In this document: piece by piece, positions 1,805 to 53,913 of the stretch
Position numbering within the stretch: the first letter of the stretch is position 1
Layout: the number at the start of each line of letters is the position of its first letter
NCBI GenBank assembly: GCA_043807425.1
Contig: JAZDFZ010000025.1
Span: 1,827 to 65,826, forward strand
Source of the DNA: Actinomycetota bacterium
GTDB taxonomy: Bacteria; Actinomycetota; Geothermincolia; Fen-727; Anoxymicrobiaceae
DNA length: 64,000 nucleotides
Reading direction: 5' to 3'
Notes under the pieces: model-generated
What the model was told of the DNA's origin: nothing
Seen by the model: only the letters and a program-made list of their open reading frames with translations
Database searches by the model: none
Program-made: the position numbers and the translations under genes

Positions 1805-1940
1805 AGGTGGGTGGGTATTTACGGCGGGTTTCTCCCGTCCAAATTCGTTGTGCTCCCGGCGCGGGTCCATTCACCAGGCCGGCCCGGGCCGTGTCCCCCA
1901 CTCAAGGACCGATATCGAAAGACCTTGGGAGGCCGTATCG

Positions 1941-15728: not shown

Positions 15729-15737
15729 AACTCAAAT

Positions 15738-15839: not shown

Positions 15840-15849
15840 CAGTGACTAG

Positions 15850-16956: not shown

Positions 16957-16983
16957 GTTCGTCCCTAATCGCAATGACTTGAG

Positions 16984-17080
16984 CCCGGCCTCTCAGGCCG
17001 GGGTCGTGCCTGCGGGGCTGAGAGCCCCGCCTCAAGCGTTTCTTGATGATAGCGGGGTTGACAACTCCCGCTCAAGAAAG
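16984..17080 (-). terminator. three consecutive GC hairpins after the end of the 13-gene operon
   Basis: CCCGGCCtctcaGGCCGGG (16984-17002). GCGGGGCtgagaGCCCCGC (17012-17030). AGCGGGgttgacaactCCCGCT nested inside TTTCTTGA...TCAAGAAA (17038-17079). No U-tract. Confidence 0.4.
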
Positions 17081-17107
17081 AATTCGCCATCGGAGAGAAT
17101 AACCCGG

Positions 17108-17845
17108 CTAGAGTATCGCGGCCAGGGCCGCGTTTATAGCACCTGAAGCAGGGCAGTCGGGCAGATCGAGGAACGAGAGCTCCTCCTCGTCGAAGCGGCG
17201 TATCGTAGGGTCCTCGGGCACCCAGCCGACCACTTCCAGGTCCGTAGCGGCGCGCACCTGCTCGACCTGACCCTCGTCGGTGACACGGTTGACCAGCAGC
17301 CCGAAACGGGCGCCGGGAGCCATGGTGGCACCAACGGCGCTGATGGTCTCCGCCGTTCGGACGGCCTTCATCGAGGTATCAGCGACCAGGAGCACGTAGT
17401 CCACCGAGCCCAGGACCTTGCGGTTCACCTGCTCTATTCCCGCCTCCGCGTCCACAACTGTCTCGTCGAAGCGAACGGCGAGCCCCTTTATGGCGTCCTT
17501 GAGGATAACGTTCACCTTGCAGTAGCAGCCGGCGTCCTCGGGGCGCCCGATCGAGAGCAGCGCCAGGTTGCCGCGCTCGGTGAGGGCCTCGGCCAGGAGG
17601 TAGTCGATGGAGACGGCCAGGTCGCGCTCGTCCCGGGCCCCCTCCTTGACCTCGTGGATGAGCTCCTTGCGCACATCGTTGAGAGTCCTGCCTGGCTTCA
17701 TGCCCAGGGCCATGGCAAGCCCGCCGGCGGGGTCGGCATCGACTATGAGAGAACGGCGCGAGCCGTCACGCGCCAGCGCCCGTGCGGCCACGGCCGCGAT
17801 CGTGGTTTTGCCGACGCCTCCCTTGCCCGAAACCGCCAGTATCAT
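17108..17845 (-). CDS. CooC/AcsF-type P-loop ATPase (metal-centre maturation family)
   Basis: MILAVSGKGGVGKTT (deviant Walker A), DADPAGGL, and the CooC-type Cys-x-Cys motif GCYCKVN. ATG overlaps the upstream stop (ATGA). Confidence 0.8.
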   Translation of the reverse strand: MILAVSGKGGVGKTTIAAVAARALARDGSRRSLIVDADPAGGLAMALGMKPGRTLNDVRKELIHEVKEGARDERDLAVSIDYLLAEALTERGNLALLSIGRPEDAGCYCKVNVILKDAIKGLAVRFDETVVDAEAGIEQVNRKVLGSVDYVLLVADTSMKAVRTAETISAVGATMAPGARFGLLVNRVTDEGQVEQVRAATDLEVVGWVPEDPTIRRFDEEELSFLDLPDCPASGAINAALAAIL

Positions 17846-18594
17846 TCTTCACCCCCACCCCGACCCTCCCCCCTCGAGGGGGAGGGAGGAATCGTACCTG
17901 CGAGACGGTCGCGTATCTTCTTCAGGTCCATCACCGAGTCGCAGACCTCCTTGTACTCGCAGGTCTCGCAGTCGAAGTTGGCCTCCTGGTACATCTTCAT
18001 CATCGCCTCGATGACCCTCTGCGCTCCCCGGGCAGGCTCGGCGAGCCGCTCCACGTCATCACGTCCCGAGGTGACGAAGAGGACCTCGGCGCACGACACC
18101 GGCTCCACGGTCTTGAGCTCCTCGATCAGCGCGGCCCCGAGGTCCGCGAGCGAGAAACCCCCGTCACGCGCCTCGGTGCTGACCCTGCACCATACGGTCT
18201 GGCGGGACGGCAGGGTGCGCACGGAGAAACCGTCCAGGTGGGTATCGTACACCGCGTCCCTGATGTCGCGGAAGGAGTCGTACTCGTTGTCGAACTCGCC
18301 CCCCACCAGGACGACCTGCCCGAAAGGTATGCTGCCCCCGCCGGCCTCAGCGACGTCAGGCCCGACCAGGGATACGCGGCCTTCCGAGATCTCGGAGGGC
18401 TCGCCCCAGGCCAGGATGGACAGCGAGGCGCCGCTGGGGTTGCCCAGCTCGAGGCCGGTATCCTCCTGCAGGACCAGGCTGTACGCGCGCGGCCAGGGGA
18501 CCTCCCGGCGCCCCAGCGTGCGCAGCCGACCTTCCCCGCTCAACTCATCAACGAACCCTCGTATCTGCTTTATCTGCTCGTCGAATAGGCCCAT
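17842..18594 (-). CDS. truncated acetyl-CoA synthase (AcsB/CdhC) middle-domain-like protein
   Basis: 250 aa from ATG 18594. SEISEGRVSLVGPDVAEAGGGSIPFGQVVLVGG...SRQTVWCRVSTEARDGGFSL...VLFVTSG...ANFDCETCEYKEVC parallels, from memory, AcsB SEITDGKIEVIGPDIDQIPEGSKLPLGILVDIYG...NINWLRVSKDAVAKGF...VTIFTD...TFYSCVLCQSFAPNHVC. Ends before the Ni-binding Cys-Gly-Cys region. Confidence 0.55.
   Translation of the reverse strand: MGLFDEQIKQIRGFVDELSGEGRLRTLGRREVPWPRAYSLVLQEDTGLELGNPSGASLSILAWGEPSEISEGRVSLVGPDVAEAGGGSIPFGQVVLVGGEFDNEYDSFRDIRDAVYDTHLDGFSVRTLPSRQTVWCRVSTEARDGGFSLADLGAALIEELKTVEPVSCAEVLFVTSGRDDVERLAEPARGAQRVIEAMMKMYQEANFDCETCEYKEVCDSVMDLKKIRDRLAGTIPPSPSRGEGRGGGEE
17850..17893 (-). repeat. 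family-1 hairpin repeat, copy 2
   Basis: CACCCCCACCCCGACCCTCCCCCCTCGAGGGGGAGGGAGGAATCG. Encodes the tail PPSPSRGEGRGGGEE of the upstream gene, and its G-rich end supplies the SD for ATG 17845. Confidence 0.9.
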
Positions 18595-18601
18595 GCAACG
18601 G

Positions 18602-19372
18602 TTAGTCCATTCCCGCGAGGAGGGCGGCGCCGAGCGCCGCGGCCAGCCTCGGGTCGTGGGGGAACTCGTAGCAGGTGCCACCCATCTTGCCCTTGATGCG
18701 GTCGTTCACCGCCGCGATGCTCGCCACGCCCCCGGTCAGGGTGTACCTGTCCCCGTCGGAGAAACGTCGCGCCTGCGCGGCCACTATGCTCGAGACAGCG
18801 TCGCACAGCCCGGCCACTATGTCGGCGGGCTGCTCGCCCGCGTTCACGTGCGTTATGACCTCGCTCTCGGCGAACACCCCGCACTGGCTGCTGATGGGCA
18901 CCGGGCTCTGCGCCCCCGACGCCGCCTCGTCGATACGGTCCAGCTCGATGCCGACAGCGTTGCTCATGACCTCGAGGAACCGCCCTGAGCCCGAGGCGCA
19001 CTTGTCGTTGCGCATGAAGTTGATCACGTCGCCGTCCTCGTCGATGAGGATGGAGGTGATGCTCTGCCCGCCGCAGTCCACCACCATGTTTATCTCCGGC
19101 AGGTAGTAGGCCCCGGCCGCCGCCACGCAGGTCACCACGTCCTCCAGGAAGGTCATGCCGCTCAGGAGCTCGGACCCACTCCCGGTCCCCGCGGTCCGCT
19201 CGATCTGCTCGCGTGACACGCCCGCGTCCGCCAGTGTCGTCTCCACCAGGGCGCCGATCTCTTCTGCCACATTCCCGGTGGTCTCCATGATGCCGCTCGC
19301 CAGCACCACGTCGTCGTCCAGGACCACCACCTTGGAGAGCAGGTTGCCCACGTCTACACCCATAGTCTTCAC
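18602..19372 (-). CDS. BadF/BadG/BcrA/BcrD-type activase ATPase (subunit 2)
   Basis: 256 aa. MGVDVGNLLSKVVV, VVDCGGQSITSILID, RNDKCASGSGRFLEVM. The GTG start overlaps the upstream stop (GTGA). Confidence 0.85.
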   Translation of the reverse strand: MKTMGVDVGNLLSKVVVLDDDVVLASGIMETTGNVAEEIGALVETTLADAGVSREQIERTAGTGSGSELLSGMTFLEDVVTCVAAAGAYYLPEINMVVDCGGQSITSILIDEDGDVINFMRNDKCASGSGRFLEVMSNAVGIELDRIDEAASGAQSPVPISSQCGVFAESEVITHVNAGEQPADIVAGLCDAVSSIVAAQARRFSDGDRYTLTGGVASIAAVNDRIKGKMGGTCYEFPHDPRLAAALGAALLAGMD

Positions 19373-20202
19373 GAGGCATCACCCGTCCTGCGGGCCAGCA
19401 CAGCGGCCCCGTAGGCGCCGATCAGTTGCGGGTCGATGTGGGGCGCGATCATCCTCACGTTCAGCATCTTCTCCAGCTCGGACCTCACCGCCACGTTCTT
19501 GGCGACCCCGCCGGTCATCATGACATCTTTCTCCATCCCCACGCGGCGTACCAGCGCCATGACCCGGTCGGCCATGGACTTGGTGATGCCGCTCGCCAGG
19601 TCCGCCCGGTTGACGCCCTTCTGGATGTAGTGCAGGACCTCGGTCTCCGCGAAGATGCTGCACCGCGACGACAGCTCGATTCGGCTGTGGGCCTCTATTG
19701 CCAGCGGTCCAAGGTCCTCGAAGGAGATGCCCAGCGTCCTGCTCATGACCTCCAGAAAGCGCCCCGTCCCCGCCGCGCACTTGTCGTTCATCACGAAGTT
19801 GACCAGGTCGCCGTTCTCGTCCACCCTTATCACCTTGGCGTCCTGGCCCCCGATGTCGATGATGGTCCTCACCTGCGGCGCCAGGGAGAACGCCCCCACC
19901 CCGTGGCAGGAGATCTCGCTCATGTTCTGCTGGGCCAGGCCCTCGGCCTCCACCCGGTCGCGCCCGTAACCGGTGCTCACACAGTAGGTGATGTCGCCCC
20001 AGCCGAGCTTCCTCTCGTCGAGCAGCTCACCCATCACGGTCCGGGCCGAGTCCAGCGGGTTCGACTTCACCCGGATGCTGCGGGCGTCGAACTTCACCCC
20101 GATCGCCTTGAGCATCGGCGTGTGCCCGTCCTCGATGAGCACCGCCTGCGCGGTCAGCGAGCCGACGTCTATCCCCGCAAAACGCCTCGTGTCACTCATC
20201 AT
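19369..20202 (-). CDS. BadF/BadG/BcrA/BcrD-type activase ATPase (subunit 1)
   Basis: 277 aa. AGIDVGSLTAQAVLI, ISCHGVGA, IIDIGGQDAKVIRV, MNDKCAAGTGRFLEVM. Confidence 0.85.
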   Translation of the reverse strand: MMSDTRRFAGIDVGSLTAQAVLIEDGHTPMLKAIGVKFDARSIRVKSNPLDSARTVMGELLDERKLGWGDITYCVSTGYGRDRVEAEGLAQQNMSEISCHGVGAFSLAPQVRTIIDIGGQDAKVIRVDENGDLVNFVMNDKCAAGTGRFLEVMSRTLGISFEDLGPLAIEAHSRIELSSRCSIFAETEVLHYIQKGVNRADLASGITKSMADRVMALVRRVGMEKDVMMTGGVAKNVAVRSELEKMLNVRMIAPHIDPQLIGAYGAAVLARRTGDAS

Positions 20203-21622
20203 CCGCTCCTCGCCGCGCCCCGCGGCCCTTCACCCTTCTCCTCTTGATAACCACGTTCTTCATGAACTCGTCAATGTCGCCCTGCAACCGGGACATGGGG
20301 GTCATGCCCGACAGCCAGGCGTCGCCCTGCAGGCACAACGTGGGCGCCCCTATGCGGTCCATGAGCTCCTTCTGGACTATGGAGATTACGCTCCAGGTCT
20401 GCTTGCAGGCGTGGTGCCCGCAGTAGATCCCGCAGTTGGCGTTCATCTCGCGGCACATGTGCACCGCGTCGTCTATCCAGGCCACGGACATGGAGTCGGC
20501 CCCCATCTGCCTGGTCATCGGGAACCGCCGCGCCGCCTCGCAGATGCCGTCCAGCATCGTCTCCCTGCTGTCGGTCGGTATGGGGTCCGGGAAGAAGAGA
20601 TCCAGCACGTCGAACAGGTAGGAGTAACCCTGCTCCTCCATCCAGTTGAAGAGCCCGTTGTAATCTATGTAGTAGCCGACGTACAGCCATCCCACGCGCG
20701 CCAGCTCTCTTGGAGCGGGGTACTCCCCCGCCTCGAGCCTGCGCCGGGACTCCTCGACCATCACCTCCATACAGCGGACCGCCTCCGGCCTTCCCCACAT
20801 GGTGAAGCGGCACCCGTAGACGAAAAAGCTGAAAAGGTTGGGCACCGGACAGGGCACGTTCTTCTTCAGCTCCCATAGCTGGTAGTGAAGCTCGGCCGCG
20901 CGGTTGCAGTTCTCCACCACGTCCCGGAGGCGCTCCTCGCTTATTTCCTCGCCGATGTACTCCTCGAGGTTGCTCACCAGCCGGTAGAAGTTCTTACGGA
21001 ACTGCTCGCGGCCGCGCTCGGTGTCGTCGACCGGCTTCTCCAGGATGAACTGGGGTATCCCCAGGTAGTGCGCGACGAACTCGTGGATCTTGGAGTTGGC
21101 GTCGCAGGCCCCCGCCGTCGAGCTCACTATCGCGTCCGCCTCGAAGTCCTGGCCGGTGAGCATGCTCCCCAGCTCGATGGTGCTGCTGCTGCAGAGGTGG
21201 TCGGGTATTCCGAGGCCCATGGCGTAGTCCCAGTAGCGATGGCCCTTGCCCTCGATGGCGCCGGCGCCGAGCGAGGTCAGAACCTCGCTGGTGAGCGGGA
21301 CCGCGTTCTCGAAGGCGTGTATCAGCTCGGGCACGAAGTTGAACGGCACCAGGATGACCTTCCTGCCGGTCTCCCTGGCCTCCCTGGCCTCGGCCATCCA
21401 CTCACCTATCATCTTCAGGTAGGCGATGCTGGCGCGGCGGACCCTCGGGTTGAGGAACCCCTCCAGGGTCTCGGCCACGTCGGGCGGCATCAGGGCGATG
21501 ACGCCCTCGCTCTCCTCGTCGGAGAGGTCGTCCGGGATACTCCGCACCATGTCGAGCATCGCGATGACCCGCTCGAAGAGGCCCTCCCGTGACGTCCTGG
21601 GTGCGCCTGCCAGTATCGTCAT
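20192..21622 (-). CDS. benzoyl-CoA reductase / 2-hydroxyacyl-CoA dehydratase family large subunit (copy B)
   Basis: 476 aa, roughly half identical by eye to the 521-aa neighbour. Shared blocks: GIPQFILEKPVDD, NLFS, LFNWMEEQGYSYL, CKQTWSV. Confidence 0.8.
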   Translation of the reverse strand: MTILAGAPRTSREGLFERVIAMLDMVRSIPDDLSDEESEGVIALMPPDVAETLEGFLNPRVRRASIAYLKMIGEWMAEAREARETGRKVILVPFNFVPELIHAFENAVPLTSEVLTSLGAGAIEGKGHRYWDYAMGLGIPDHLCSSSTIELGSMLTGQDFEADAIVSSTAGACDANSKIHEFVAHYLGIPQFILEKPVDDTERGREQFRKNFYRLVSNLEEYIGEEISEERLRDVVENCNRAAELHYQLWELKKNVPCPVPNLFSFFVYGCRFTMWGRPEAVRCMEVMVEESRRRLEAGEYPAPRELARVGWLYVGYYIDYNGLFNWMEEQGYSYLFDVLDLFFPDPIPTDSRETMLDGICEAARRFPMTRQMGADSMSVAWIDDAVHMCREMNANCGIYCGHHACKQTWSVISIVQKELMDRIGAPTLCLQGDAWLSGMTPMSRLQGDIDEFMKNVVIKRRRVKGRGARRGADDE

Positions 21623-23184
21623 AGCATTGCCCCCTCACCCCGACCCTCTCCCCCCAGGGGAGAGGGGGAATCTGGGCGACCCTCTCCCCCGAGGGGAGAG
21701 GGGGAATCGGAGGTCTTTTCCTCCAGCCGCCTGCGGATCTTTCTCTTGCCGGTCCGCTTCTCGGAGACGACGTTCTTGATGAACTCGTCTATCTGCTCCT
21801 GGATGACACCGATGGGGGTGGTGCGCTTCAGCCACGAGTCCCCCTGCAGGACCAGCATCGGCACGCCCGCCCGCTTCATCAGCTCCTCGCGCATTATGGA
21901 GGCCACGCTCCAGGTCTGCTTGCAGGAGTGGTGCCCGGAGTAGATGGCTACGTTCGCTCCCAGGTCCTTCGCGGAGTACAGCGCGTCCTCCAGCCAGCAC
22001 ATGGACATCGATTCGCCCCCGACCTGGTGGGTCATGGGCATGTTCCAGGCTTCCTCGGCCAGCCCACTCACCATGCTGTCGTAGCTGCTGGTGTCGATGG
22101 TGATGGGGAACAGCAGGTCGAGGCCGTCCCCCAGGTAGGAGTATCCCTGCTCCTCCATCCAGTTGAAGAGCGCCGCCAGGTCGAAGTAGTAGGAGGTATA
22201 GGTCAGCAGGCAGCGGGCGATCTCGCGGTCCGCAGGGTACGCGCCCTCCTTCAGGCGCCTCTTGGAGACGTCCACATAGGCCCTGATGGCGTCGATAGCG
22301 GCGTCCGTCCCCCACATCGAGAAACGCGTCCCGTAGGTGTACAGGCTGAACAGGTTGGGGACCGGGTCGGGCACGTTCTTGTGGAGGTCCCACAGCTCCG
22401 CCAGCAGCTCGTTGCAGACGTTCACTTTCTCGCAGGTGCGCCGCAACTTCTCCTCGGTGAGCTCCTCGTCCAGGAACTCCTCCATCCTGTGGATGAGGCC
22501 CAGGTAGTTCCTCCGGTACTGCTCTTTTCCTCGCTCAGAGTCGTCGACCGGCTTCTCCAGGATGAACTGTGGGATGCCGTGATACAGCGAGATGAGCTCG
22601 TGGGTCTTGGCGTTTATGTCGCAGGAACCGGTCGCGGCGTTGATTATCGCCTGCGGCTGGAAGTCGTCGCTGCCCAGCATCGAGCCGATCTCGATGGCGT
22701 TCGACGAGCAGATGTGGTCCGGCAGGCCGATCCCCAGCGCCATGTCGTAGTAGCGCTCGCCCTGCCCTTCCAGGGCGACGACCGCCAGCGAAGAGAGGAC
22801 CTCGCTTGTTATGGGGAACCCCTTGTCGAAGGCGTGGACCAGTTCGGGCGGAAAGCAGAACGGCACCAGGAACGTCTTCCGGCCCTCGTCAGGCGAGCGC
22901 TTCGCCTCGTCCAGCCAGGTGGAAAGGCACTTCATAAAGGCGAGGCTCCCCTCGCGGGCCCGGGGTATGAGCATCGCGGTCAGGGACTTGCGAGAGTCGC
23001 CCGGGAGCACGCCCATCAGACCCTCGACCTCCTCGTCGCTCATCTCGTCCGGGAGCATGTCGATGACCCGGAACAGGCTCGAGACCCTGTCGAAGAGCCC
23101 TTCCTTGGCGTCACCGGGAAGGCCCGGGGCCGCCCGGCCCTCGGGCTTGAGTATCTCGGTGAGAGTCGCGACGGAGCCGCTCAT
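21619..23184 (-). CDS. benzoyl-CoA reductase / 2-hydroxyacyl-CoA dehydratase family large subunit (copy A) with a repeat-encoded tail
   Basis: ATG 23184 overlaps the upstream stop (ATGA). MSGSVATLTEILKPEG... 521 aa, with the last ~30 aa encoded by the tandem repeat. Its stop overlaps the next ATG (ATGA). Confidence 0.8.
   Translation of the reverse strand: MSGSVATLTEILKPEGRAAPGLPGDAKEGLFDRVSSLFRVIDMLPDEMSDEEVEGLMGVLPGDSRKSLTAMLIPRAREGSLAFMKCLSTWLDEAKRSPDEGRKTFLVPFCFPPELVHAFDKGFPITSEVLSSLAVVALEGQGERYYDMALGIGLPDHICSSNAIEIGSMLGSDDFQPQAIINAATGSCDINAKTHELISLYHGIPQFILEKPVDDSERGKEQYRRNYLGLIHRMEEFLDEELTEEKLRRTCEKVNVCNELLAELWDLHKNVPDPVPNLFSLYTYGTRFSMWGTDAAIDAIRAYVDVSKRRLKEGAYPADREIARCLLTYTSYYFDLAALFNWMEEQGYSYLGDGLDLLFPITIDTSSYDSMVSGLAEEAWNMPMTHQVGGESMSMCWLEDALYSAKDLGANVAIYSGHHSCKQTWSVASIMREELMKRAGVPMLVLQGDSWLKRTTPIGVIQEQIDEFIKNVVSEKRTGKRKIRRRLEEKTSDSPSPLGGEGRPDSPSPLGGEGRGEGAML
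21630..21708 (-). repeat. family-1 hairpin repeat, tandem copies 3a and 3b
   Basis: CCCCTCACCCCGACCCTCTCCCCCCAGGGGAGAGGGGGAATC, then GCGACCCTCTCCCCCGAGGGGAGAGGGGGAATCGG. Translated as SDSPSPLGGEGRPDSPSPLGGEGRGEGAML. Confidence 0.9.
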
Positions 23185-24320
23185 GACCTGTCTCCTATCC
23201 TCTCGAGGAACGCCTGGACCCTGGTCCGGATGCGCCCGATGTCCGCCTTCGAGCCGTACTCCTTCTCGAGCTGGAGGACCGGGATGCCCTCCTTCTCGAG
23301 CGAAAGGCGGAGCTGGACGTTGTCCACCCCGTGGACGTCGCAAAACTTGTTGTGCATGACCATCACGCCGTCGGCGCCGGCGCGCTTCACCTCGTCGATG
23401 ACGAAGTCCCGTCTCCTGGGGAAGTCCTCGTACATGCGCGGGCAGAGCATCTCCTTGAGGTAGAGCTCGGCCAGCGCCTCGATGGGCTCCAGGTCAGTCC
23501 GTATTGGCTTCCAGAACGCGCGGGCCCCGTAGCACAGCGAGTCGGTGACCACCAGGCCGCCCACGTCCTCTATCTCACCGATGAGCTCCAGCTCGTCGGT
23601 GGCGGCGCCGCACAGCATGAGGCGGGCCCGGTAGCCGGTGACCCCGGTGCCCGAGCGCTCCTCTATCACGCGGTCGATCAGAGCGAGGTAATCGTCCGCG
23701 GGCATCGCGGAGGCCAGCAGGAACAGCGAGAGCGCCTCGGTCCCCGTGAACGACGGGGCGTCGCCCTCCCTCATGGCGTACACCTCGCGCAGCTTCGATC
23801 GGACGGCCTCCTGCCGCTCGATGGCCTTCTTAAGCTTCGGCTTGGTGACCTTGGTCCCGAAGCCGGCCTCCAGGGCCCTGGCGAAGAGCCTGAGCTCCTC
23901 CGTGTAGTACTCCATCGCCTCGGGCGTGGTCTGGTGCGGCACCTTCACGTAGTGGAAGAACGCCACCGGCTTGACGTACTGCCAGTTCTCGAACATCCCC
24001 CGCAGGTGGTCGCAGCCGTTGGTCTCGATCAGCCCGTCCAGGAAGTCGAAGGTCCCGTCCAGGCCCAGCTGCAGGCACGAGCGGCAGAAGCTGCAGTTGA
24101 AGCGCGCCAGGTGGGCGTCGGCTATCTCGGTGTTGGGGTTGCCCAGGGCCCGGATGCGGTATGGCAGCAGGCCCGCCGCGTCGATTATCTCCGGAGGGGT
24201 CGTCACGCAGCTGTATCCGACGACCTTGCCGCCGCCTTCCTTCCACCGCTTCACGTACTCGTTCTCGACCGCCTCCGATATCCTGACGGCCTCTTCCAGC
24301 GCGCTGGTGGTAACAGTCAT
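23181..24320 (-). CDS. benzoyl-CoA reductase / 2-hydroxyacyl-CoA dehydratase family small subunit (BzdN/BcrC/HgdB-like)
   Basis: 379 aa. VVGYSCVTTPPEIIDAAGLLPYRI, FCRSCLQ, NGCDHLR, LMLCGAA, HNKFCDVHG. Confidence 0.8.
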   Translation of the reverse strand: MTVTTSALEEAVRISEAVENEYVKRWKEGGGKVVGYSCVTTPPEIIDAAGLLPYRIRALGNPNTEIADAHLARFNCSFCRSCLQLGLDGTFDFLDGLIETNGCDHLRGMFENWQYVKPVAFFHYVKVPHQTTPEAMEYYTEELRLFARALEAGFGTKVTKPKLKKAIERQEAVRSKLREVYAMREGDAPSFTGTEALSLFLLASAMPADDYLALIDRVIEERSGTGVTGYRARLMLCGAATDELELIGEIEDVGGLVVTDSLCYGARAFWKPIRTDLEPIEALAELYLKEMLCPRMYEDFPRRRDFVIDEVKRAGADGVMVMHNKFCDVHGVDNVQLRLSLEKEGIPVLQLEKEYGSKADIGRIRTRVQAFLERIGDRS

Positions 24321-24321
24321 G

Positions 24322-25599
24322 TCAAGCTCCTCCAGTGATCTTTCTACCCACGAATGCGACGAACGCCTTTATCGTCTTCCAGAGGTTGCGCGCGAAGATG
24401 CGCGTCATCGCCTGGACCATCCCGGTGCTGGCGAACGCCGCCTCTATCAACCCGTCGGAGACGTTCCGGACCGCGATCTCCATCTGCCCCGAGTCTATCG
24501 AGGATACGAGGCGGCCGAGGTAGTCACCCACCGCGCCGGGGCGGCCCGCGGCCGACGCGTTGAACGCGGCCAGCGACTCGTTTATGCGGCGCGCCACCTG
24601 CTCGGGCTCACACGCCCGGCGGATACCCGGGTGCGCGAGGGCGGCGGCCTTCCAGTCGGCGCCGACCTCCCTGAGGAGCGTCTCCGCGCTCTCGGTGTCA
24701 ACGGCGGCCAGCCCCTTGACGTAGACCTCGCGGTTGAGGCCGGGGTTGGCGGCCCTGAACTTCAGGTCCCAGGTGACATACAGGTCGATCATGCGGCCTA
24801 TCTCCCCTGCCAGCTCGTGCCTGGCGACCTCACCCAGCTTACCCAGCCTTCCCTCGTCCAGCATGGTGAAGTCGGAGAGCATATTGCTCATGGTGCGGGC
24901 GAAGATGTTCATCATCTCGACGCTGCCCCGTGTGAGCTGCACCAGGACCTCGTCGTCCCGTATTGCCAGCTCGGTCAGGACGCCCGCTATGACCTCCAGG
25001 TCCTCGGCCAGGGCGATGGAGGCGTCAGTAGTCGCCTTCACGTCCAGGTTTTCCATCACCCTGTTCATGAAGTCGTTGAACACGGCGCGCGACTTCGGCT
25101 CGTCGCGGCCCAGTATCAGGTTGCCGGCGTGGAGGTCGTTGATCTGCCCGGCGGTCATGGTCAGTATCTTCCCGATCGATTCGGCGTCCAGAGCGCTGAT
25201 GGTATTGAAGAGCGCGGAGGCCAGTATCTCCGGCGGCAGCGCCATCTGGTCGAGCGCGTCGGCCAGTACCGCCAGCAGGCCGTTGACCAGGGGCGGGATG
25301 GTTCCGAGGAGGTTGGCCATGATGACCGGGTTGGTCAGCGCTATCCCCGAGGCGTGCTTGAGCAGCTCCGCCCAGGCCCCGATGAGCTCGCTTGCCGCGA
25401 CACGGACCTTGCCGAAGTCGATGTCCGTCAGGGCGTCGTCCAGCGCCGGGAACATCTGCTTCGCGACGTCGGGGTTCTCCTTGAACGACTCCATGACCGC
25501 CAGCGAGTAGCTGTTGACGGCCTCGGCAAGCGCCTTGCCGTCAAGGCCGGCGGCCCAGGGCTCGAGCATCGGTCGCTTTTCTTCTCCACTTGCCGCCAA
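24322..25599 (-). CDS. all-helical protein of unknown family (long paralog, 425 aa)
   Basis: TTG 25599 with AAGGGGTGAT SD inside the end of the upstream gene. No Cys/His motifs and no clear TM helix. Shares a ~45-aa module with the two upstream genes: PPLVNGLLAVLADALDQMALPPEILASALFNTISALDAESIG. Confidence 0.7.
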   Translation of the reverse strand: MAASGEEKRPMLEPWAAGLDGKALAEAVNSYSLAVMESFKENPDVAKQMFPALDDALTDIDFGKVRVAASELIGAWAELLKHASGIALTNPVIMANLLGTIPPLVNGLLAVLADALDQMALPPEILASALFNTISALDAESIGKILTMTAGQINDLHAGNLILGRDEPKSRAVFNDFMNRVMENLDVKATTDASIALAEDLEVIAGVLTELAIRDDEVLVQLTRGSVEMMNIFARTMSNMLSDFTMLDEGRLGKLGEVARHELAGEIGRMIDLYVTWDLKFRAANPGLNREVYVKGLAAVDTESAETLLREVGADWKAAALAHPGIRRACEPEQVARRINESLAAFNASAAGRPGAVGDYLGRLVSSIDSGQMEIAVRNVSDGLIEAAFASTGMVQAMTRIFARNLWKTIKAFVAFVGRKITGGA

Positions 25600-25605
25600 C
25601 TGGCA

Positions 25606-26208
25606 TCACCCCTTGTTGATCATCTCCGACAGCCTGCGTACCAGCCGTCCGGTCAGGGAAAATACGGTAAGCGCGAGGGAGCGCGCCACGGCCGTCCCGG
25701 CCCGCAGCAGCTCCAGGCCGTCCACCTGCTCGGCCACGTCGCGCAGGAAGTATGGATCGGAGGTGGCGGCGCGGTTCACCCACCGTGCCCCCGTGTTGAT
25801 GAGCCGTGCCAGCGCGCCCGCCGCCGAGTCGCGGGCACCCACCTTCTCCAGGAGCGGGCCGTAGACACGGGGCAACTCGGCGACCTTCTCCATGTCTATC
25901 CGCTCGGCCACCTGCCCGCCGAAGGCCGCTATAAGGTGCGGGGGAAGCCCGTCGAAGACCCGACCCGCCTCGAGGGCCGCCTCCAGCAGGTAGTTGATTA
26001 CTTCCGGTAGGGTCCCCGAGAGGCTGAGCGAGAGGTTTACGTCCTCGAGGAGGGCCGTCCGCACCAGCTCCCGCGCGGCTTCGGGATCAAGCCCCGTAGT
26101 GTTCGTCTTTATGATCTCCAGGAACGCGGGCGTGCGGATGACCTCGCGCAGCACCCGTGCCCCGGATCCCGCCCGGGGGACGGCCTTCGGCTCGCGCGTC
26201 TCCTCCAT
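25606..26208 (-). CDS. all-helical protein of unknown family (short paralog 2, ~200 aa)
   Basis: ATG 26208 overlaps the upstream TGA by 1 nt. MEETREPKAV...RTPAFLEIIK...LDPEAARELVRTALLEDVNLSLSLSGTLPEVINYLLEA...GLPPHLIAAFGGQVAERIDMEKV. Confidence 0.7.
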   Translation of the reverse strand: MEETREPKAVPRAGSGARVLREVIRTPAFLEIIKTNTTGLDPEAARELVRTALLEDVNLSLSLSGTLPEVINYLLEAALEAGRVFDGLPPHLIAAFGGQVAERIDMEKVAELPRVYGPLLEKVGARDSAAGALARLINTGARWVNRAATSDPYFLRDVAEQVDGLELLRAGTAVARSLALTVFSLTGRLVRRLSEMINKG

Positions 26209-26819
26209 CACAGCACCTCCTCGCCTTCACCACCCGCTCCGGCGATGTCCAGCGCCTCCCTGCACGCCCTGGCCAGCGGGCCGACTACGCTCTTCATGAA
26301 CTCCGGGTTCTCCGCGGCGAAGGAGGTTATGCCGCCCGCCAGCCCCCGGGCCAGGTCGGCGACGTTCATCCCTTCGACCGAGGAAAGCCCGCCGGCGAAT
26401 CGTCCCACGAAGGCGCTGGCCGCGTCGGCCAGTGAATCCCCCGCCGCTGCACCGGTCTTTGTGGCAAGGACGGCGATACCGCCCAGGGTCGACCCCAGCC
26501 GTTCGGCGTCCAGGCCGGCCAGCGCCTGTGCGGCGAACTGCCCGAGCAGCGCGGGAGGGAACCCCGCCAGCTGCCGAACCAGCTCGTCGATGGCCACGAT
26601 GCCCGCGTTGAGAAGGTCGGGCGCGGCCGCCATCAGGCCCAGGGAGAACTCCGGATCGGTCCAGAGCAGGGTCCTGACCAGCATCGCCGCGTTCTCAGGG
26701 TCGAGCTCGCCCAGCAGTATCCTCACCGTCTGCTTGAACTTCGGGGTGCGAAGCAGCTCGGCCAGGATCCTGCTGGTCCCTTCGATCGGCCCGTTTCGTG
26801 GAGCTGTCTCTTCGATCAT
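26208..26819 (-). CDS. all-helical protein of unknown family (short paralog 1, 203 aa)
   Basis: ATG 26819. MIEETAPRNG...RTPKFKQTVR...LDPENAAMLVRTLLWTDPEFSLGLMAAAPDLLNAGIVAI...GFPPALLGQFAAQALAGLDAERLG. The upstream part of ORF 26208-27122 is repeat-derived, not coding. Confidence 0.7.
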   Translation of the reverse strand: MIEETAPRNGPIEGTSRILAELLRTPKFKQTVRILLGELDPENAAMLVRTLLWTDPEFSLGLMAAAPDLLNAGIVAIDELVRQLAGFPPALLGQFAAQALAGLDAERLGSTLGGIAVLATKTGAAAGDSLADAASAFVGRFAGGLSSVEGMNVADLARGLAGGITSFAAENPEFMKSVVGPLARACREALDIAGAGGEGEEVL

Positions 26820-26830
26820 GGCCTCACCTT

Positions 26831-26918
26831 TCACCCTGCCCTCTCCCCCGGTGGAGGGGGACAAACAGCGACGGTCACCCCCACCCCGACCCTCCCCCCT
26901 CGAGGGGGAGGGAGTCAG
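26831..26918 (-). repeat. family-1 hairpin repeat, copies 4a (degenerate) and 4b
   Basis: TCACCCTGCCCTCTCCCCCGGTGGAGGGGGACAAAC, then TCACCCCCACCCCGACCCTCCCCCCTCGAGGGGGAGGGAGTCAG. Copy 4b ends exactly at the ACAD stop codon (26915-26917). Confidence 0.85.
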
Positions 26919-28183
26919 AGTGTCTCGCACTCGTAGAACCAGCGGGCGACCTCCATCTGGCCCAGTTGCTTGCCGCCCAGCCACAGCTGGACGATCTTCA
27001 GGTCGCGCCAGTGCTTCTCGATGTCTTGCGCGCGGTCGCTGCCGCGTGGCCCCATGATGTCCAATGCCTTGCCCGAGATCTCCACCGCCTTGTCGCAGGC
27101 GAAGCACTTGTAGGCGCGGCACTTGGCCACGATCTCGTCGGACCAGTTGTCCCCGTAGAGGTCAGGCCGGTCGAGCATGCGTGCCGACTGGTACCCGACA
27201 ATGCGGGTTATCTCTATGTCGCGGGCGATGTCGGCGAGCACGCCTGCGACGTCGTCGTTCTCCTTGAGCGGCTTCCCCCTGAACGTGGTCTCCTCGCAGA
27301 ACTCTTTGAGCAGCTCGAAGATGTTCAGCATGGCCCCGCTGGCGAACGCCACTGACAGCACGTTCCCCCAGGAGACCATCTCCTTGAAGTACAGGAAGTC
27401 CAGCCCGGGCCCGTGCGCGCGGTACCACACCGGGACCCTGACGTTGTCGAACCAGATGTCGGAGTTCTTGTCCGCCGCCATCCCCGCCTTCTGGTACGGC
27501 TTCCCCTGGGTCACGCCCGGGAGGTCCGTCGGGCAGAATATGAAGGCGAAGTCGTCGGGGTCGGTCGAGCCCAGCTTCGTGGTGCAGACCACGCCGAACA
27601 GCTTCGCCGCCCCGCCGCTGTTGGTCGGCCAGAGCTTGTGCCCGCTGATGACCCATTCGTCGCCGTCCAGTATGGCGGTGGTCTGGATGGTGCTGCCCTT
27701 GAGGAGGTCTAGGTTCTCTATGTCGCTGCCGCCCTGCGGTTCGGTCATGGCGTTCGCCGCGAAGACGGGCTCCTCTGTCTCGCAGAACATGGGCGCGAAC
27801 TCGGCGCAGAGCCTGCGGTTCACGTGCGGTTCCTTGCATATCATGAGCAGGGGCCAGTGCATCACCGCGAAGGCGACGCCCATGGCCGAGTCCGCCCGGC
27901 TGATCTCCTCACAGACCCTGAAGCCGCCCACCCCGCCGTAGTCGGAGTGCCCCATCCCGAAGCCCCCCATGTCCTCGGGGAAGAAGAAGCGCTGGAACCC
28001 CAGTTCGCCCATCAGGCTCTTGAACGCCGGCTCGATGGTCTCGTGTTCCTCCCAGTCCTCGTCGAAGCCGCGCCTGAGGGGCATGACCTCCCGCTCGGCC
28101 CAGGCGCGGGTAATCTCCCCGAGGTACCCGTCCAGCGGAGAGAGGTACTCCAGTGGCCTGGTGAAATCGTCTATGCTGCGCAT
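26915..28183 (-). CDS. acyl-CoA dehydrogenase family protein (atypical C-terminal active-site region)
   Basis: 422 aa. AMTEPQGGSDI, WVISGHKLWPTN, IEKHWRDLKIVQLWLGGKQLGQMEVAR. The MCAD-type 'YEGT' Glu position reads L-G-G. Confidence 0.8.
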   Translation of the reverse strand: MRSIDDFTRPLEYLSPLDGYLGEITRAWAEREVMPLRRGFDEDWEEHETIEPAFKSLMGELGFQRFFFPEDMGGFGMGHSDYGGVGGFRVCEEISRADSAMGVAFAVMHWPLLMICKEPHVNRRLCAEFAPMFCETEEPVFAANAMTEPQGGSDIENLDLLKGSTIQTTAILDGDEWVISGHKLWPTNSGGAAKLFGVVCTTKLGSTDPDDFAFIFCPTDLPGVTQGKPYQKAGMAADKNSDIWFDNVRVPVWYRAHGPGLDFLYFKEMVSWGNVLSVAFASGAMLNIFELLKEFCEETTFRGKPLKENDDVAGVLADIARDIEITRIVGYQSARMLDRPDLYGDNWSDEIVAKCRAYKCFACDKAVEISGKALDIMGPRGSDRAQDIEKHWRDLKIVQLWLGGKQLGQMEVARWFYECETL

Positions 28184-28359
28184 GTCCCCCTCCCTTCAGT
28201 ACCCCATTCCATGAATACGCTTGCATTCGAACGCCGATCCATCCGCACCTGCTGCGTTCCGCTCCCTCCGAGTACTACAGGAGTACGCGTCGGTCGCGCG
28301 CCTTGCACGAGCGGCGCCTCGACGTTCTCGGTGCGACACCGTACTCATGAAATGGGGCA
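28184..28359 (-). other. 176-nt structured intercistronic region closed by a 17-bp helix
   Basis: Arms at 28202-28218 and 28341-28357. On the minus (sense) RNA, CCCCAUUUCAUGAGUAC pairs with GUAUUCAUGGAAUGGGG: 15 Watson-Crick and 2 G-U pairs. Internal hairpins include GUACUccuguAGUAC and CGAGgcgccgCUCG. Confidence 0.5.
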
Positions 28360-29601
28360 CTACAGTGCCTTCAGCCCGTAGTAGTGCCGCGCCATGTTAA
28401 CGCTCGCGCAGGTCTCCGGGACCACGTACGTCTCGATGGTCTTCACGTCTCGCCAGTAACGCTCTAGGTTCCACTCCGTCGCGTACCCGGCGGACGCCAT
28501 GAGCTCCATCGCGTTATCGATCCCCTGCATCGCTCCCCGCGAAGCCTGCTTGAAGACCGACGTCGCGGTGGCGAAGATGGGTGGTGAGCCCGCCGGGCCG
28601 TAGAGGTCGGGGCGCGCGAGCATCCGCGCCAGGCTGTAGACCAGAATCCGGATGGCCCCGCACCGGCCGGCGATCTCACCCATCAGGGCGGCGGTGAGCG
28701 GGTTCTCCTTGAACACCTGACCTTTGCCCTTGATCACCCGGGTGTCGCCCCACTCCTTGAGTATCTCGTAGGACGCCAGGAGCGATCCGGCGCACACGGC
28801 CGCGCACGCCATGTAGTACCAGGACAGCAGGCCCAGTGTCCTCTCCTCTCCCTGGAACACCAGCGTTCCGCTCGCGCCGTCGAGGTCGAGGTCGGCGTTG
28901 ATGCTGGGGGCCAGGCCGGTCTTCAGGAACGGCTCGGAGGCCTTCAGCTCCTTCGACGCCGCCGGAACGATCACCAGTGCGGGCGCGCCGTCCAGCCCGC
29001 AGACGACCCCGAACAGGGTGCCGTTGGCTCCGCAGCATTGGGGCCGGACCGAGGTGCCGCTCACGGCGACCAGGGTTCCGGGCTTCATCGAATTGTCTTT
29101 GGCCGTGTTACGTACGGTTGCCGGGTACTCCATGCCGAGGAAGGCCCCCTGGTCCTTCCCGGACCCGTACCCGGGGAGAACGAGCCCGGCGAGGTTGAGC
29201 CCATCCGAGCAGAACAGCGGCGCGATCTCCTCCAGTACGGCGGCTTCGACGTTCGGCTCTATCGCGAACGATGACTGCAGCGCCAGCGTGTTGGCGCAGA
29301 CGAAGCCTATGCCGGTATCGGCGTAGCCGGCCAGCTCCAGGCAGACCGCGGCCGTCACCGCCGCGTCGGGGGTGGACATCCCGCCGCCACCGGACCCGTC
29401 CGGCATCAGCATCGACCCCAGCCCGAGGTCCACCATCAGCTTGCGCATCGCGGGCTCGAGCAGGGCGTCGTAATCCTCCCGGTGCTCCAGCCGCCCGGCC
29501 TTGACCTCCGCCTCCGCCCACTGCGAGACGGTCTGGGCCATCTGCTCGTCGGTCTCCTGCACCCACTCGACGGGAACAGGGAACAGTTCCTGGTACTTCA
29601 T
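28360..29601 (-). CDS. degenerate acyl-CoA dehydrogenase-like protein
   Basis: 413 aa with ACAD-like length and C-terminus (LERYWRDVKTIETYVVPETCASVN). The nucleotide/substrate motif is degenerate (LVLPGYGSGKD instead of TEPxxGSD). GGGGTGAT SD. Confidence 0.6.
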   Translation of the reverse strand: MKYQELFPVPVEWVQETDEQMAQTVSQWAEAEVKAGRLEHREDYDALLEPAMRKLMVDLGLGSMLMPDGSGGGGMSTPDAAVTAAVCLELAGYADTGIGFVCANTLALQSSFAIEPNVEAAVLEEIAPLFCSDGLNLAGLVLPGYGSGKDQGAFLGMEYPATVRNTAKDNSMKPGTLVAVSGTSVRPQCCGANGTLFGVVCGLDGAPALVIVPAASKELKASEPFLKTGLAPSINADLDLDGASGTLVFQGEERTLGLLSWYYMACAAVCAGSLLASYEILKEWGDTRVIKGKGQVFKENPLTAALMGEIAGRCGAIRILVYSLARMLARPDLYGPAGSPPIFATATSVFKQASRGAMQGIDNAMELMASAGYATEWNLERYWRDVKTIETYVVPETCASVNMARHYYGLKAL

Positions 29602-29672
29602 GGCATCACCCCACGGATTCCTCTCGGTCCGGTCCTCGACGAAACCGCCCTCGTGACGGACCGTTCATCCCG

Positions 29673-30296
29673 CTACCCCCTCACCAGCAGGCCGTTCAAC
29701 TGCAGGTCCACGAACCCGGCGGACACTCCCTCGATGTCGTTCTTCCAAAGCCCCGCGCTCAGGTTGCGCCCCAGGTGTATGAGGCCTCCGACCACGAACT
29801 CGGCGGCCCGTCGCGCGCTCAGGTCGCGCACGATCCCTATGCCCTCACCGAACACGATAAGCCTCTCGAACTGGTCCGTCACTCGCTCCTGGAAGTCTAT
29901 AAACAGCGCGGTCATCTCGTCGTCCACGCCGACAAGCTCGTGCAGGAAGACCTTGGTCATGCTGCGGTTCTTCGCTATGTAGTGAAAGACGTCGGTCATG
30001 ATGGCTGCAAGGCGACGCTCCAGCTCCGCCTCGTCGGGCGGCGGCAGGTCCGGCGCGGTGAATCGCGCGATGGCGTCATCTATGCCGGGCGCGAGTATGG
30101 CGAGGATGTCCTCCATTATTCCGCTCACAGCGGCGGTGAAGACGTCGCGCTTGCTGGAGAAGTAGGAGTAGAAGGTGGACCGGGCGGCCCCGGCCTCGCC
30201 GAGGATGTCCTCGACCGTCGCCTTGTGATAACCGACCTTCGCGAATACCTTCGCTCCGGCATTCACAATCTGGTCGCGCTTGCCGTTCGAGCCCAT
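29673..30296 (-). CDS. TetR/AcrR family transcriptional regulator
   Basis: 207 aa. N-terminal HTH: IVNAGAKVFAKVGYHKATVEDILGEAGAARSTFYSYFSSKRD. Confidence 0.9.
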   Translation of the reverse strand: MGSNGKRDQIVNAGAKVFAKVGYHKATVEDILGEAGAARSTFYSYFSSKRDVFTAAVSGIMEDILAILAPGIDDAIARFTAPDLPPPDEAELERRLAAIMTDVFHYIAKNRSMTKVFLHELVGVDDEMTALFIDFQERVTDQFERLIVFGEGIGIVRDLSARRAAEFVVGGLIHLGRNLSAGLWKNDIEGVSAGFVDLQLNGLLVRG

Positions 30297-30326
30297 AGGA
30301 AAGCCCCATCCCTGGAGGTACCTTAC

Positions 30327-30346
30327 CGAACATACATGTATGTTCG
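30327..30346. promoter_or_regulatory. perfect 20-bp palindrome, candidate TetR operator
   Basis: CGAACATACATGTATGTTCG, 31 bp upstream of the tetR ATG (30296), in the divergent region shared with the PAS kinase gene. Confidence 0.55.
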
Positions 30347-30478
30347 ATGTCGACTAATATACAACCGCCATCGACGTGCGTCAAGATTCCCACCGATATT
30401 TTTCTTGACCGTATTCCTGTCCACCGCTCGCGGGTTCACACGACTGTCAGCGTTGCGATACGCTTTTTTGCAGGTAAA

Positions 30479-53876: not shown

Positions 53877-53913
53877 GGGTAATCGACGCGACTGAATGGA
53901 TTGGGAGGCGGTC

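Follow-up and report, generated by a model that had tools for sequence, protein, structure and literature searches.

The question raised by this locus is which reaction is served by a set of genes that combines relatives of benzoyl-CoA reductase (BCR) and 2-hydroxyacyl-CoA dehydratase (HAD) with acyl-CoA dehydrogenase (ACAD)-like flavoproteins, helical proteins and a fragment of acetyl-CoA synthase (ACS). The 13 genes, referred to here as the cassette, are located on the minus strand at positions 17108–30296 of a 64,000-bp stretch of contig JAZDFZ010000025.1, called the window in the following, which comes from a metagenome-assembled genome (MAG) of an uncultured member of the Actinomycetota. 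The GTDB species representative carries the corresponding locus L032 (JAHJCO010000002.1) with 92–97% DNA identity. The original prediction, made from the sequence alone, was that the genes form a single unit with TetR at its head and encode a not yet described reductase or dehydratase, ATP-dependent and of the BCR/HGD family. This was supported by profile searches and gene linkage, and neither the combination of HGD-D/BcrAD genes with CdhC-like and CooC-like genes nor the helical family was found to be described in the open-access papers and preprints searched. Based on the observed homologies, conserved ligand residues, gene linkage and operator footprint, we consider it reasonably probable that the unit encodes a multi-subunit ATP-driven iron-sulfur (Fe-S) enzyme similar to class I (Bzd-type) BCR and belonging to a separate clade.

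Gene content of the cassette

The proteins of the window were typed by Pfam and NCBIfam profile searches. All 13 predicted open reading frames (ORFs) were found, and Pfam bore out the predicted domains (TetR, the ACADs, three HGD-D, two BcrAD_BadFG, CdhC and a CbiA/ParA-type P-loop ATPase). In the order of transcription the genes are:

29673–30296, minus: TetR-family regulator, first gene of the unit (TetR_N 3e-13; TetR_C_24)
28360–29601, minus: ACADb, degenerate ACAD-like protein; only the ACAD N and C domains score, with no match to the middle domain
26915–28183, minus: ACADa, ACAD-fold flavoprotein with ACAD N, M and C domains, without the canonical catalytic glutamate
26208–26819, minus: hel1, about 200 aa, new family without Pfam or NCBIfam match, occurring in loci with the ACAD pair
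25606–26211, minus: hel2, matching the N-terminal third of a protein of about 600 aa (residues 19–166 of L005:3993-5801, E 4e-25)
24322–25599, minus: hel3, all-alpha, matching the C-terminal two thirds of the same protein (residues 192–584 of L005:3993-5801); NCBI start at 25569
23181–24320, minus: S, BzdN-like small HGD-D subunit (HGD-D 2e-85), predicted carrier of a double-cubane [8Fe-9S] cluster
21619–23184, minus: L1, large HGD-D subunit of the catalytic type with three invariant Cys and a tail derived from a repetitive extragenic palindrome (REP)
20192–21622, minus: L2, second large HGD-D subunit, 51% identical to L1; C144, C173 and C406 invariant
19369–20202, minus: ATPase 1, BcrAD/BzdQ-like (BcrAD_BadFG 1e-62); Cys142 and Cys181 invariant
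18602–19372, minus: ATPase 2, BcrAD-type, 40% identical to ATPase 1; Cys125 and Cys164 invariant
17842–18594, minus: CdhC-like protein (250 aa), ACS middle (A2) domain with a C-terminal CxxCx5C (Pfam CdhC 8.6e-11)
17108–17845, minus: CooC-type P-loop ATPase with a CxC metal motif (best PDB match CooC1 3kje, E 2e-12)

The hel3 and CdhC-like proteins correspond to NCBI locus tags V1748_02855 and V1748_02825 (both 100% identity).

The catalytic core

Among solved structures, S showed the highest similarity to BzdN (8s02_B; E 1.7e-55, 191.7 bits), well above HadC (127 bits), the double-cubane cluster protein (DCCP) and MbdN. All Cys residues of BzdN in the pairwise alignment are matched by Cys in S, and eight Cys of S are 90–99% conserved among 77 homologues. 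BzdN holds a six-Cys double-cubane [8Fe-9S] cluster (PMC11971306), and S is predicted to carry a cluster of the same type.

An alignment of 10 large subunits contained exactly three invariant Cys, in the motifs PDHxCS, GxCDxNxK and GHHxCKQ. The profile of this family matched HadB (3o3m_A, 7e-17), DCCP (2.5e-16) and BzdO (7e-10). Both BzdO and HadB bind a [4Fe-4S] cluster via three Cys, and in BzdO, Glu65 and His131 hold an additional water ligand (PMC11971306). The L family has a hydrophobic residue near the position of His131, inside the invariant CDxNxK that replaces the Cys128...His131 segment of BzdO. L1 and L2 form separate old clades. In other loci, the large-subunit copy after the ATPase genes arose by an independent duplication, and further pairs occur in other lineages; doubling of the catalytic subunit is therefore recurrent. 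Each of the two ATPases has an invariant Cys pair at a spacing of 39 residues, as do Cys127 and Cys166 in the activator HgdC.

The profile searches thus confirmed the family of each recognizable protein, and no cassette protein reached any curated NCBIfam equivalog cutoff. The best model for S was the double-cubane model NF040772 (188 bits, cutoff 350), and bzdN scored 174.8 (cutoff 453.8). ATPase 1 scored 195.2 bits with bzdQ (cutoff 380.2), the HadC and HadB models gave 144 and 33 bits (cutoffs 700 and 750), and the bzdO and bcrB models did not match L1 or L2. Membership in canonical BCR, HAD or DCCP was rejected because these cutoffs were missed.

Compared to BzdNOPQ (BzdNO structure PDB 8S02, PMC11971306), the cassette has the same order of a small HGD-D subunit, a large HGD-D subunit and two BcrAD ATPases; S is nearest to BzdN with the aligned Cys kept, L has three cluster Cys as BzdO, and each ATPase keeps the Cys pair of the bridging cluster. 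It differs from the Bzd system in that BzdO is less close to L than HadB and DCCP are, in that L contains CDxNxK and apparently no equivalent of His131, and in that there are two large paralogs, no ferredoxin and no dienoyl-CoA genes. Moreover, an ACAD pair, helical proteins, a CdhC-like protein and a CooC-like protein are added. As judged from these alignments, the core would have the architecture of class I BCR (a double-cubane subunit, a catalytic subunit and a heterodimeric ATPase) in a clade of its own.

The CdhC-like protein and the CooC-type ATPase

The CdhC-like protein aligned to the A2 middle domain of bacterial ACS (ACS chains, E ~3e-8) and to the N-terminal part of archaeal CdhC. 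A Foldseek search with its AlphaFold model (pLDDT 89.6) gave 22 significant matches, all of which were ACS or CdhC. The NCBIfam scores were 35–48 bits compared to cutoffs of 356–809, and the alignment stopped at model position 186. C209, C212, C218, W135 and R137 are invariant in the family. The protein ends about 30 residues past the CxxCx5C, and the fourth cubane Cys and the Cys-Gly-Cys Ni site are missing. The CxxC of the archaeal A-cluster presumably starts at about Cys189, which would place the CxxC of the CdhC-like protein there.

Acetyl-CoA is held by the A2 domain of ACS, where Trp405 (C. autoethanogenum numbering) stacks on the adenine; Arg383 and His386 are located near the A-cluster (bioRxiv 10.1101/2024.08.05.606187). 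By offset mapping through the pairwise alignment, the invariant W135 is the equivalent of Trp405; equivalents of Arg383 and His386 are not retained. It is most plausible that the CdhC-like protein keeps CoA-nucleotide binding and carries an Fe-S centre in which a coordination site is open or shared. The historically implicated Trp418 of ACS was discarded as a CoA marker, the position being a non-conserved Ser, Thr or Met in the CdhC-like proteins. The protein does not have the A-cluster ligand set of a complete ACS, and there is no CGC motif.

The GKGGVGKT (deviant Walker A) and CYC motifs of the CooC-type ATPase align with those of CooC1, and C107 and C109 of the CxC were present in 42 of 44 homologues. 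AcsF is the ATP-dependent chaperone that inserts metal into ACS. The constant CooC-type neighbour therefore suggests that metal is delivered in the same way to the CdhC-like protein or to the core.

Thus, the pair resembles ACS (AcsB/CdhC) with CooC/AcsF in the A2 fold, adenine-stacking Trp and CxxC of the CdhC-like protein and in the position of the CooC-type gene after the CdhC-like gene, mirroring the pairing of ACS and AcsF. Unlike ACS, the CdhC-like protein has no A1 and almost no A3 domain, besides the missing cubane Cys, Ni site and Arg383/His386 equivalents, and it is linked to a BCR-like enzyme and not to carbon monoxide dehydrogenase (CODH), corrinoid iron-sulfur protein or Wood-Ljungdahl genes. 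The original prediction called the pair maturation-like, which is only one reading; it may represent a maturase set, or else a subunit for electron entry or for docking of the substrate. Electron entry is favoured by a polyferredoxin gene situated directly before the CdhC-like gene in two loci, L085 and L086.

Two side observations concern this protein. Both L1/L2 (20192–23184; consensus GLFDRV...) and the CdhC-like protein (17842–18594; MGLFDEQ...) start with a conserved G-L-F-D/E motif leading into a helix, which may be a docking peptide or a coincidence. Furthermore, CdhC-like proteins of about 240 aa (P0055, P0056, P0062 and many others) are labelled 'CO dehydrogenase/acetyl-CoA synthase beta subunit' by JGI.

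The ACAD pair and the helical proteins

The closest relative of ACADa is ACADb and vice versa (27% identity). ACADa conserves M-T-E-P-Q-G-G-[AS]-D. Where Y-E-G would be expected, each of the 42 family sequences with residues at those columns has W-[ML]-G, and Gly273 occupies the alternative (helix-G) base position. In ACADb, the TEPxxGSD-type motif of the flavin region is degenerate and the position of the YEG glutamate is Val, Leu or Met. Since the catalytic glutamate is missing, the flavoprotein step is not a standard ACAD reaction.

ChsE1-ChsE2 and FadE28-FadE29 of actinobacterial steroid catabolism are heteromeric alpha2beta2 ACADs made of two adjacent paralogs, one of which is flavin-degenerate. 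As in these systems, the cassette has adjacent ACAD paralogs with one degenerate in the flavin region, which by analogy suggests a heterodimer with one FAD for a bulky acyl-CoA. In contrast to ChsE1-ChsE2, the intact ACADa also lacks the canonical glutamate, and the pair is linked to an anaerobic Fe-S enzyme.

The helical proteins had been described as three paralogs. This was true for hel1 and hel2, which showed 36% identity over 126 aa, whereas hel2 and hel3 align to consecutive parts of the single protein of about 600 aa encoded at L005:3993-5801, and the lineage of the window therefore carries a gene fission. According to these alignments, the ancestral helical set consisted of one short and one long protein. 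The AF2 model of hel3 is all helical (pLDDT 78), and a Foldseek search of the PDB with this model gave no fold match. Pfam and NCBIfam searches with hel1, hel2 and hel3 gave no matches, and no Pfam domain was found in 25 distant hel3 relatives. At 50% identity the hel3 family comprises 413 clusters. No convincing transmembrane segment was detected in any of 14 proteins, which makes a role of the helical proteins as membrane anchor unlikely.

Occurrence of the cassette in other genomes

Species-representative genomes were scanned with the large-subunit alignment, and the loci were annotated with hidden Markov models built from the window proteins. The scan revealed 76 cassette loci, in Actinomycetota (Geothermincolia, Solincola, Anoxymicrobiaceae), Bacillota (Syntrophomonadaceae, Dethiobacteria), Desulfobacterota and Myxococcota. 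The gene order is far from chance: it recurs in dozens of loci at 30–80% protein identity, and at least four phyla share both order and strand at 30–50% identity. That the helical proteins and the pair of ACS fragment and CooC belong to the system was borne out by most orthologous loci. Sequence of at least 2 kb beyond the ATPase genes was available for 46 non-redundant loci; 35 of these contained a CdhC-like and/or CooC-like gene there (31 both), 10 had a second large-subunit gene instead, and one had neither, with its CdhC-like gene upstream. The helical family likewise co-occurs with the HGD-D genes: 38 loci had at least 5.5 kb of upstream sequence, and of these, 26 contained the ACAD pair and hel3 there, 2 hel3 alone and 10 neither.

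The hel3 family was represented by 48 clusters in a word search and the CdhC-like family by 122 + 456 clusters, all from metagenomic or MAG sequences; both families are named 'hypothetical' by NCBI. All 12 CdhC-like/hel3 contexts inspected by look-up showed the cassette, with the CdhC-like gene beside HGD-D and BcrAD genes.

Three Desulfobacterota loci showed a variant organization in which a GMC oxidoreductase replaces the ACAD pair:

L084, 6235–15264
L085, 1353–15051
L086, 1–13150

This variant starts with the GMC oxidoreductase gene and continues with hel3-like, S, L, the two ATPase genes and the CdhC-like and CooC-like genes; a further HGD-D pair, accompanied by one activator, closes the row. 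The polyferredoxin of L085 and L086 (395 aa) is encoded between the ATPases and the CdhC-like gene. In L084, the GMC gene is preceded by an ABM-domain protein, and the upstream region holds Hdr/FlpD-like genes and genes for a sigma-54 activator and an MFS transporter.

In another subtype, the one with the second L gene after the ATPases, there is no TetR gene at the head, and the genes directly downstream encode a histidine kinase with a PocR sensor and a response regulator of the LuxR type:

L035, L037, L042, L044, L048–L050, L052, L058, L064, L071 and L073; L071 has CdhC-like and CooC-like genes nearby on the opposite strand

The system is thus modular: the ACAD/helical module is missing from some relatives, in others a GMC flavoprotein stands in for the ACADs, and in others a second L takes the place of an adjacent CdhC-like/CooC-like pair. 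The most constant set consists of hel3-like, S, L, two ATPases, CdhC-like and CooC-like, and the flavoprotein partner is exchangeable.

Recurrent neighbours were a FadD-like acyl-CoA ligase (11 loci), the PocR histidine kinase (12), the LuxR regulator (11) and a URO-D/Fer4 protein (10). Across the 76 loci, no further gene family that would name the substrate was present in more than 12 loci and none was universal. Some MAGs were found to contain at least two cassette copies or subtypes (L013 and L060 on JBBQKJ010000001.1, L027 and L031, L023 and L073, L038 and L077), sometimes about 20 kb apart on one contig, which suggests paralogous systems with different substrates.

Putative promoter and operator, and gene junctions

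The following features were found around and within the unit:

30356–30384, minus: sigma-70-like promoter TTGACG-17-TATATT upstream of the TetR gene (10 of 12 consensus positions, a consensus match only)
30327–30346, no strand: perfect 20-bp palindrome CGAACATACA-TGTATGTTCG, probable TetR operator, downstream of the -10 element
26839–26912, no strand: REP-like palindromic element(s) in the ACADa–hel1 interval, which is about 58 nt shorter in L032
16978–17080, minus: three GC-rich hairpins without U tract after the CooC-like stop codon (-60.8 kcal/mol, z = -3.2)
15850–16974, minus: metallophosphoesterase gene (Metallophos), downstream neighbour conserved in the Actinomycetota clade

The promoter-like site is the sole one on the minus strand upstream of the cassette, and no such site was found on that strand inside the unit. 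The palindrome occurs once in the window and gave 0 matches in shuffled sequences; no second operator copy was found within the unit. The same palindrome, GAACATACA/TGTATGTTC, also precedes the orthologous TetR genes in L001, L003, L009, L013, L014, L032 and L033. The palindrome at 30327–30346 is probably the operator of TetR, a candidate with a good conserved footprint. The regulator itself has the N-terminal helix-turn-helix domain of a TetR-family repressor along with this palindrome in its own promoter, and its best NCBIfam similarity, far under the cutoff, was to the acyl-CoA-responsive FadR of Bacillus. One promoter-like site at the head, one conserved operator and no promoter-like site within together argue for a single unit.

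The ATGA overlaps at 23181–23184, 21619–21622 and 17842–17845, the GTGA overlap at 19369–19372, the 11-nt overlap at 20192–20202 and the 1-nt gap at 24321 were found exactly where predicted. The 6-nt gap at 25600–25605 was confirmed if hel3 starts with TTG, but not with the NCBI start (P0001, 415 aa), which lies 30 nt further in; similarly, hel1 and hel2 overlap by 1 nt with the ATG at 26208 but by 4 nt with the GTG at 26211. Wider gaps that had not been described were detected between TetR and ACADb (71 nt), ACADb and ACADa (176 nt), ACADa and hel1 (95 nt) and ATPase 2 and the CdhC-like gene (7 nt).

REP-like palindromes (CCCTCTCCC...GGGAGAGGG) are present at three internal junctions (26839–26912, 21632–21702 and 17864–17886). 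The family, with the consensus CCCTC[TAC]CCC ... GGG[AG]GAGGG, after which TCGGGGTGAGGG often comes, is dispersed over the window, with further sites at 11972–12006, 40825, 59665 and 63782–63816, and its copy number or presence differs between the window and L032. Inside the operon, the elements are read in frame as 'SPSPLGGEGRGEG'-type tails that form the last ~26 codons of L1 (21622–21700) and ~18 codons of the CdhC-like gene. These C-terminal tails are absent from homologues. The overlaps at 21619–21622 and 17842–17845 are therefore recent accidents and not conserved coupling, and co-translation, which had been deduced from the overlaps, does not follow from these two of the four.

The three hairpins predicted at the end of the operon were recovered by folding. 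A scan for intrinsic terminators gave sites no more frequent than in shuffled sequences, and no RNA family was found by Rfam over 15500–31000. The metallophosphoesterase gene was found at the same position in L001, L003, L008, L011, L013, L014, L016, L017 and L021; it possibly has its own promoter, as a promoter-like site is located at 17075–17046. On the other side, a PAS-domain histidine kinase (30347–31624, plus) is divergent from the TetR gene. Because its first ATG abuts the operator palindrome, translation probably starts further downstream. A terminator-like hairpin is located at 30449–30464 (plus).

Proposed function

The path of electrons can be proposed by homology. A heterodimer of the two BcrAD-type ATPases would share a [4Fe-4S] cluster and accept one electron, which ATP hydrolysis would drive to the double-cubane [8Fe-9S] cluster of S and from there to the three-Cys [4Fe-4S] cluster of L1 or L2. 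At L, a thioester or carbonyl substrate would be reduced or dehydrated via a ketyl-type radical, and L1 and L2 could provide two active-site specificities or act as an L1/L2 pair. For the other proteins, the following roles are proposed. ACADa and ACADb, probably as a heteromer with one flavin, would form a flavoprotein module with hel1 and hel2/hel3 that makes or removes a double bond beside the activating group, the unsaturated intermediate being its product or its substrate. The CdhC-like protein, a putative remnant of ACS A2 with three of the cubane Cys of the A-cluster, would contain an Fe-S (possibly Ni-Fe-S) centre loaded by the CooC-type ATPase and may serve the core as a dedicated subunit for electron entry or for docking of the CoA ester. 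TetR would repress the whole unit at the palindrome until a ligand binds.

Weak hints point to an aliphatic or alicyclic acyl-CoA rather than benzoyl-CoA as the substrate. An aliphatic acyl-CoA is suggested by the FadD-like ligase beside the cassette in 11 loci, by the resemblance of TetR to Bacillus FadR, and by the absence of aromatic or dienoyl-CoA pathway genes from the window. Benzoate-CoA ligase, ferredoxin, dienoyl-CoA hydratase, hydroxyacyl-CoA dehydrogenase and ring hydrolase were found neither in the unit nor in the 64-kb window, the rest of which is unrelated to the cassette according to Pfam, and no families of the benzoyl-CoA pathway were recurrent among the 76 loci. The family as a whole may extend beyond CoA esters, as indicated by the GMC variant.

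Going further, we tentatively propose, as a possibility that we hold at somewhat below even confidence in its entirety, a new class of ATP-driven double-cubane reductases. These would have an obligatory ACS-A2-derived subunit, with a site-differentiated Fe-S (or Ni-Fe-S) centre put in place by its own CooC-type ATPase, and a family of soluble helical proteins coupling the core to interchangeable flavoproteins (ACAD heteromers without catalytic base, or a GMC enzyme). In subsurface anaerobes, they would reduce or dehydrate aliphatic acyl-CoA or lipid-derived substrates at low potential. More boldly, such a system could perform ATP-driven uphill electron transfer from acyl-CoA oxidation.

Several observations weigh against the proposed Bzd-like enzyme and its accessory modules. 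Every carrier of the cassette is a MAG, and about 10 loci have no adjacent CdhC-like/CooC-like pair. The GMC oxidoreductase in place of the ACADs in L084–L086 weakens the case for an acyl-CoA substrate throughout the family, and ACADa, lacking both known positions of the catalytic base, may not be a dehydrogenase. The L profile ranks HadB over BzdO, which leaves room for dehydratase chemistry. As predicted, no ferredoxin or electron-transferring flavoprotein (Etf) is encoded inside the unit, so that the electron donor is not part of it, and the polyferredoxin of L085 and L086 shows that the CdhC-like protein need not be the donor. Finally, the gaps of 71 and 176 nt and the REP hairpins leave scope for internal regulation.

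Alternative explanations

The cassette could encode a HAD system in which the ATPases act as catalytic activators and the ACAD pair reduces the enoyl-CoA, as in the clostridial had/fld/lcd operons. We consider this unlikely, despite the best match of the L profile to a solved structure being the catalytic subunit HadB and the His131 of BzdO being replaced in the L family at a position that is alanine in HadB (PMC11971306). Like HadBC/HadI (PDB 3O3M), the cassette has an HGD-D heterodimer. An ACAD gene next to the dehydratase is typical of had and fld operons, including those of clostridia, and dehydratases use one homodimeric activator. In the cassette, two distinct ATPase genes were conserved in all annotated loci. 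The score of S with BzdN (191.7 bits compared to 127 with HadC) and the conservation of all BzdN-aligned Cys argue for a predicted double cubane and against the single cubane of HadC. In addition, the unit has neither CoA transferase nor EtfAB, the ACADs lack the catalytic glutamate, and the scores are far under the HadB and HadC equivalog cutoffs.

Rather improbable is a DCCP-like reductase acting on a small non-CoA molecule or on a lipid, as PlsA/Ger do, with interchangeable flavoproteins and with the CdhC-like and CooC-like proteins building a nickel site. The top NCBIfam match of S (the double-cubane reductase model, 188 bits), the replacement of the ACADs by GMC oxidoreductase in L084–L086, and the CxC motif of CooC, which implies metal delivery, are in line with it. 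With DCCP and its reductase DCCP-R (PDB 6ENO/7YYL; PMC7317905), the cassette shares the HGD-D fold, the six-Cys [8Fe-9S] motif and a BcrAD-type ATP-dependent partner; the score of S is far from the cutoff of that model (188 vs 350), and a separate three-Cys catalytic subunit and two ATPases are present in the cassette. A conserved heteromeric S/L pair with two ATPases speaks against this type, DCCP being a homodimer with one reductase partner. The PlsA/PlsR and Ger enzymes (PMC13159169) are anaerobic HGD-D and BcrAD enzymes as well, and since they act on fatty-acyl chains, that is, on lipids, the range of the superfamily goes beyond aromatic and 2-hydroxyacyl-CoA substrates. However, they are fused multi-domain BBD...H proteins with DUF2229, without BzdN-like subunit, ACADs or CdhC-like/CooC-like proteins, and Pfam scored no DUF2229 in the cassette. 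The adenine-stacking Trp of ACS kept in the CdhC-like protein also argues against a non-CoA substrate, and the ACAD fold and FadD-like neighbours indicate CoA esters in the subtype of the window.

That the 13 genes are a chance or loose row of separate ACAD/hel, BCR-like and CdhC-like/CooC-like units is very improbable. Each module was found without the others in some loci, and the internal gaps of 71–176 nt and the REP hairpins could separate them; against this stand the order and strand kept over at least four phyla at 30–50% identity, the CdhC-like/CooC-like genes after the ATPases in 35/46 loci, the CdhC-like gene with HGD-D and BcrAD genes in 12/12 contexts, and the sole promoter-like site and sole operator at the head of the unit.

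An ordinary class I (Bzd-type) BCR operon for anaerobic aromatic degradation, to which the order of small subunit, large subunit and two ATPases as in bzdNOPQ and the matches of S to bzdN (175 bits) and of ATPase 1 to bzdQ (195 bits) could point, is given hardly any weight, as these scores are far under the cutoffs (174.8 vs 453.8 and 195.2 vs 380.2), L1 and L2 match neither bzdO nor bcrB, CDxNxK is found where BzdO has Cys128...His131, the window has no aromatic-pathway gene set, and the ligases neighbouring the cassette elsewhere are FadD-like.

Other features of the window

Outside the cassette, the window contains a complete split set of genes for non-homologous end joining (52878–55619, plus), in which an ATP-dependent DNA ligase, Ku and a LigD primase-polymerase domain are encoded by three adjacent genes. 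A protein of 2011 aa (1848–7883, plus) has nine TIG/IPT repeats and DUF5719; a DUF5719 protein is also encoded just downstream of the cassette in L001 (20034–21290), which may be residual synteny. An ORF of 884 aa (49513–52167, minus) combines an FGGY carbohydrate kinase with a D-2-hydroxyacid dehydrogenase and is either an unusual fusion or two genes merged by the ORF call.

Implications

To our knowledge, ATP-coupled electron transfer below the range of ferredoxin is limited to a few types of systems, namely nitrogenase-like systems, BCR/HAD/DCCP, and the activators of corrinoid proteins and of methyl-coenzyme M reductase, and we know of no pair of an ACS-derived cofactor subunit and a CooC-type assembly protein outside CODH/ACS. 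The core superfamily of the cassette is known; the accessory set of an ACS-derived protein with a CooC-type chaperone, flavoproteins without catalytic base and a helical family is without precedent beside it.

The cassette is abundant in uncultured anaerobes of the subsurface and of digesters (Geothermincolia, Solincola, Dethiobacteria, Syntrophomonadaceae and Desulfobacterota), where its genes can mislead annotation: the JGI naming of the CdhC-like proteins can inflate predictions of the Wood-Ljungdahl pathway in MAG studies, and the HGD-D genes can be misread as markers of aromatic degradation. The cassette is widely conserved, probably as one operon, and likely encodes a new variant of ATP-driven radical reduction chemistry. 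Once its reaction is known, a radical transformation of acyl-CoA or lipids not seen before may come to light, as may a new use of the nickel-chaperone/ACS module outside carbon fixation.

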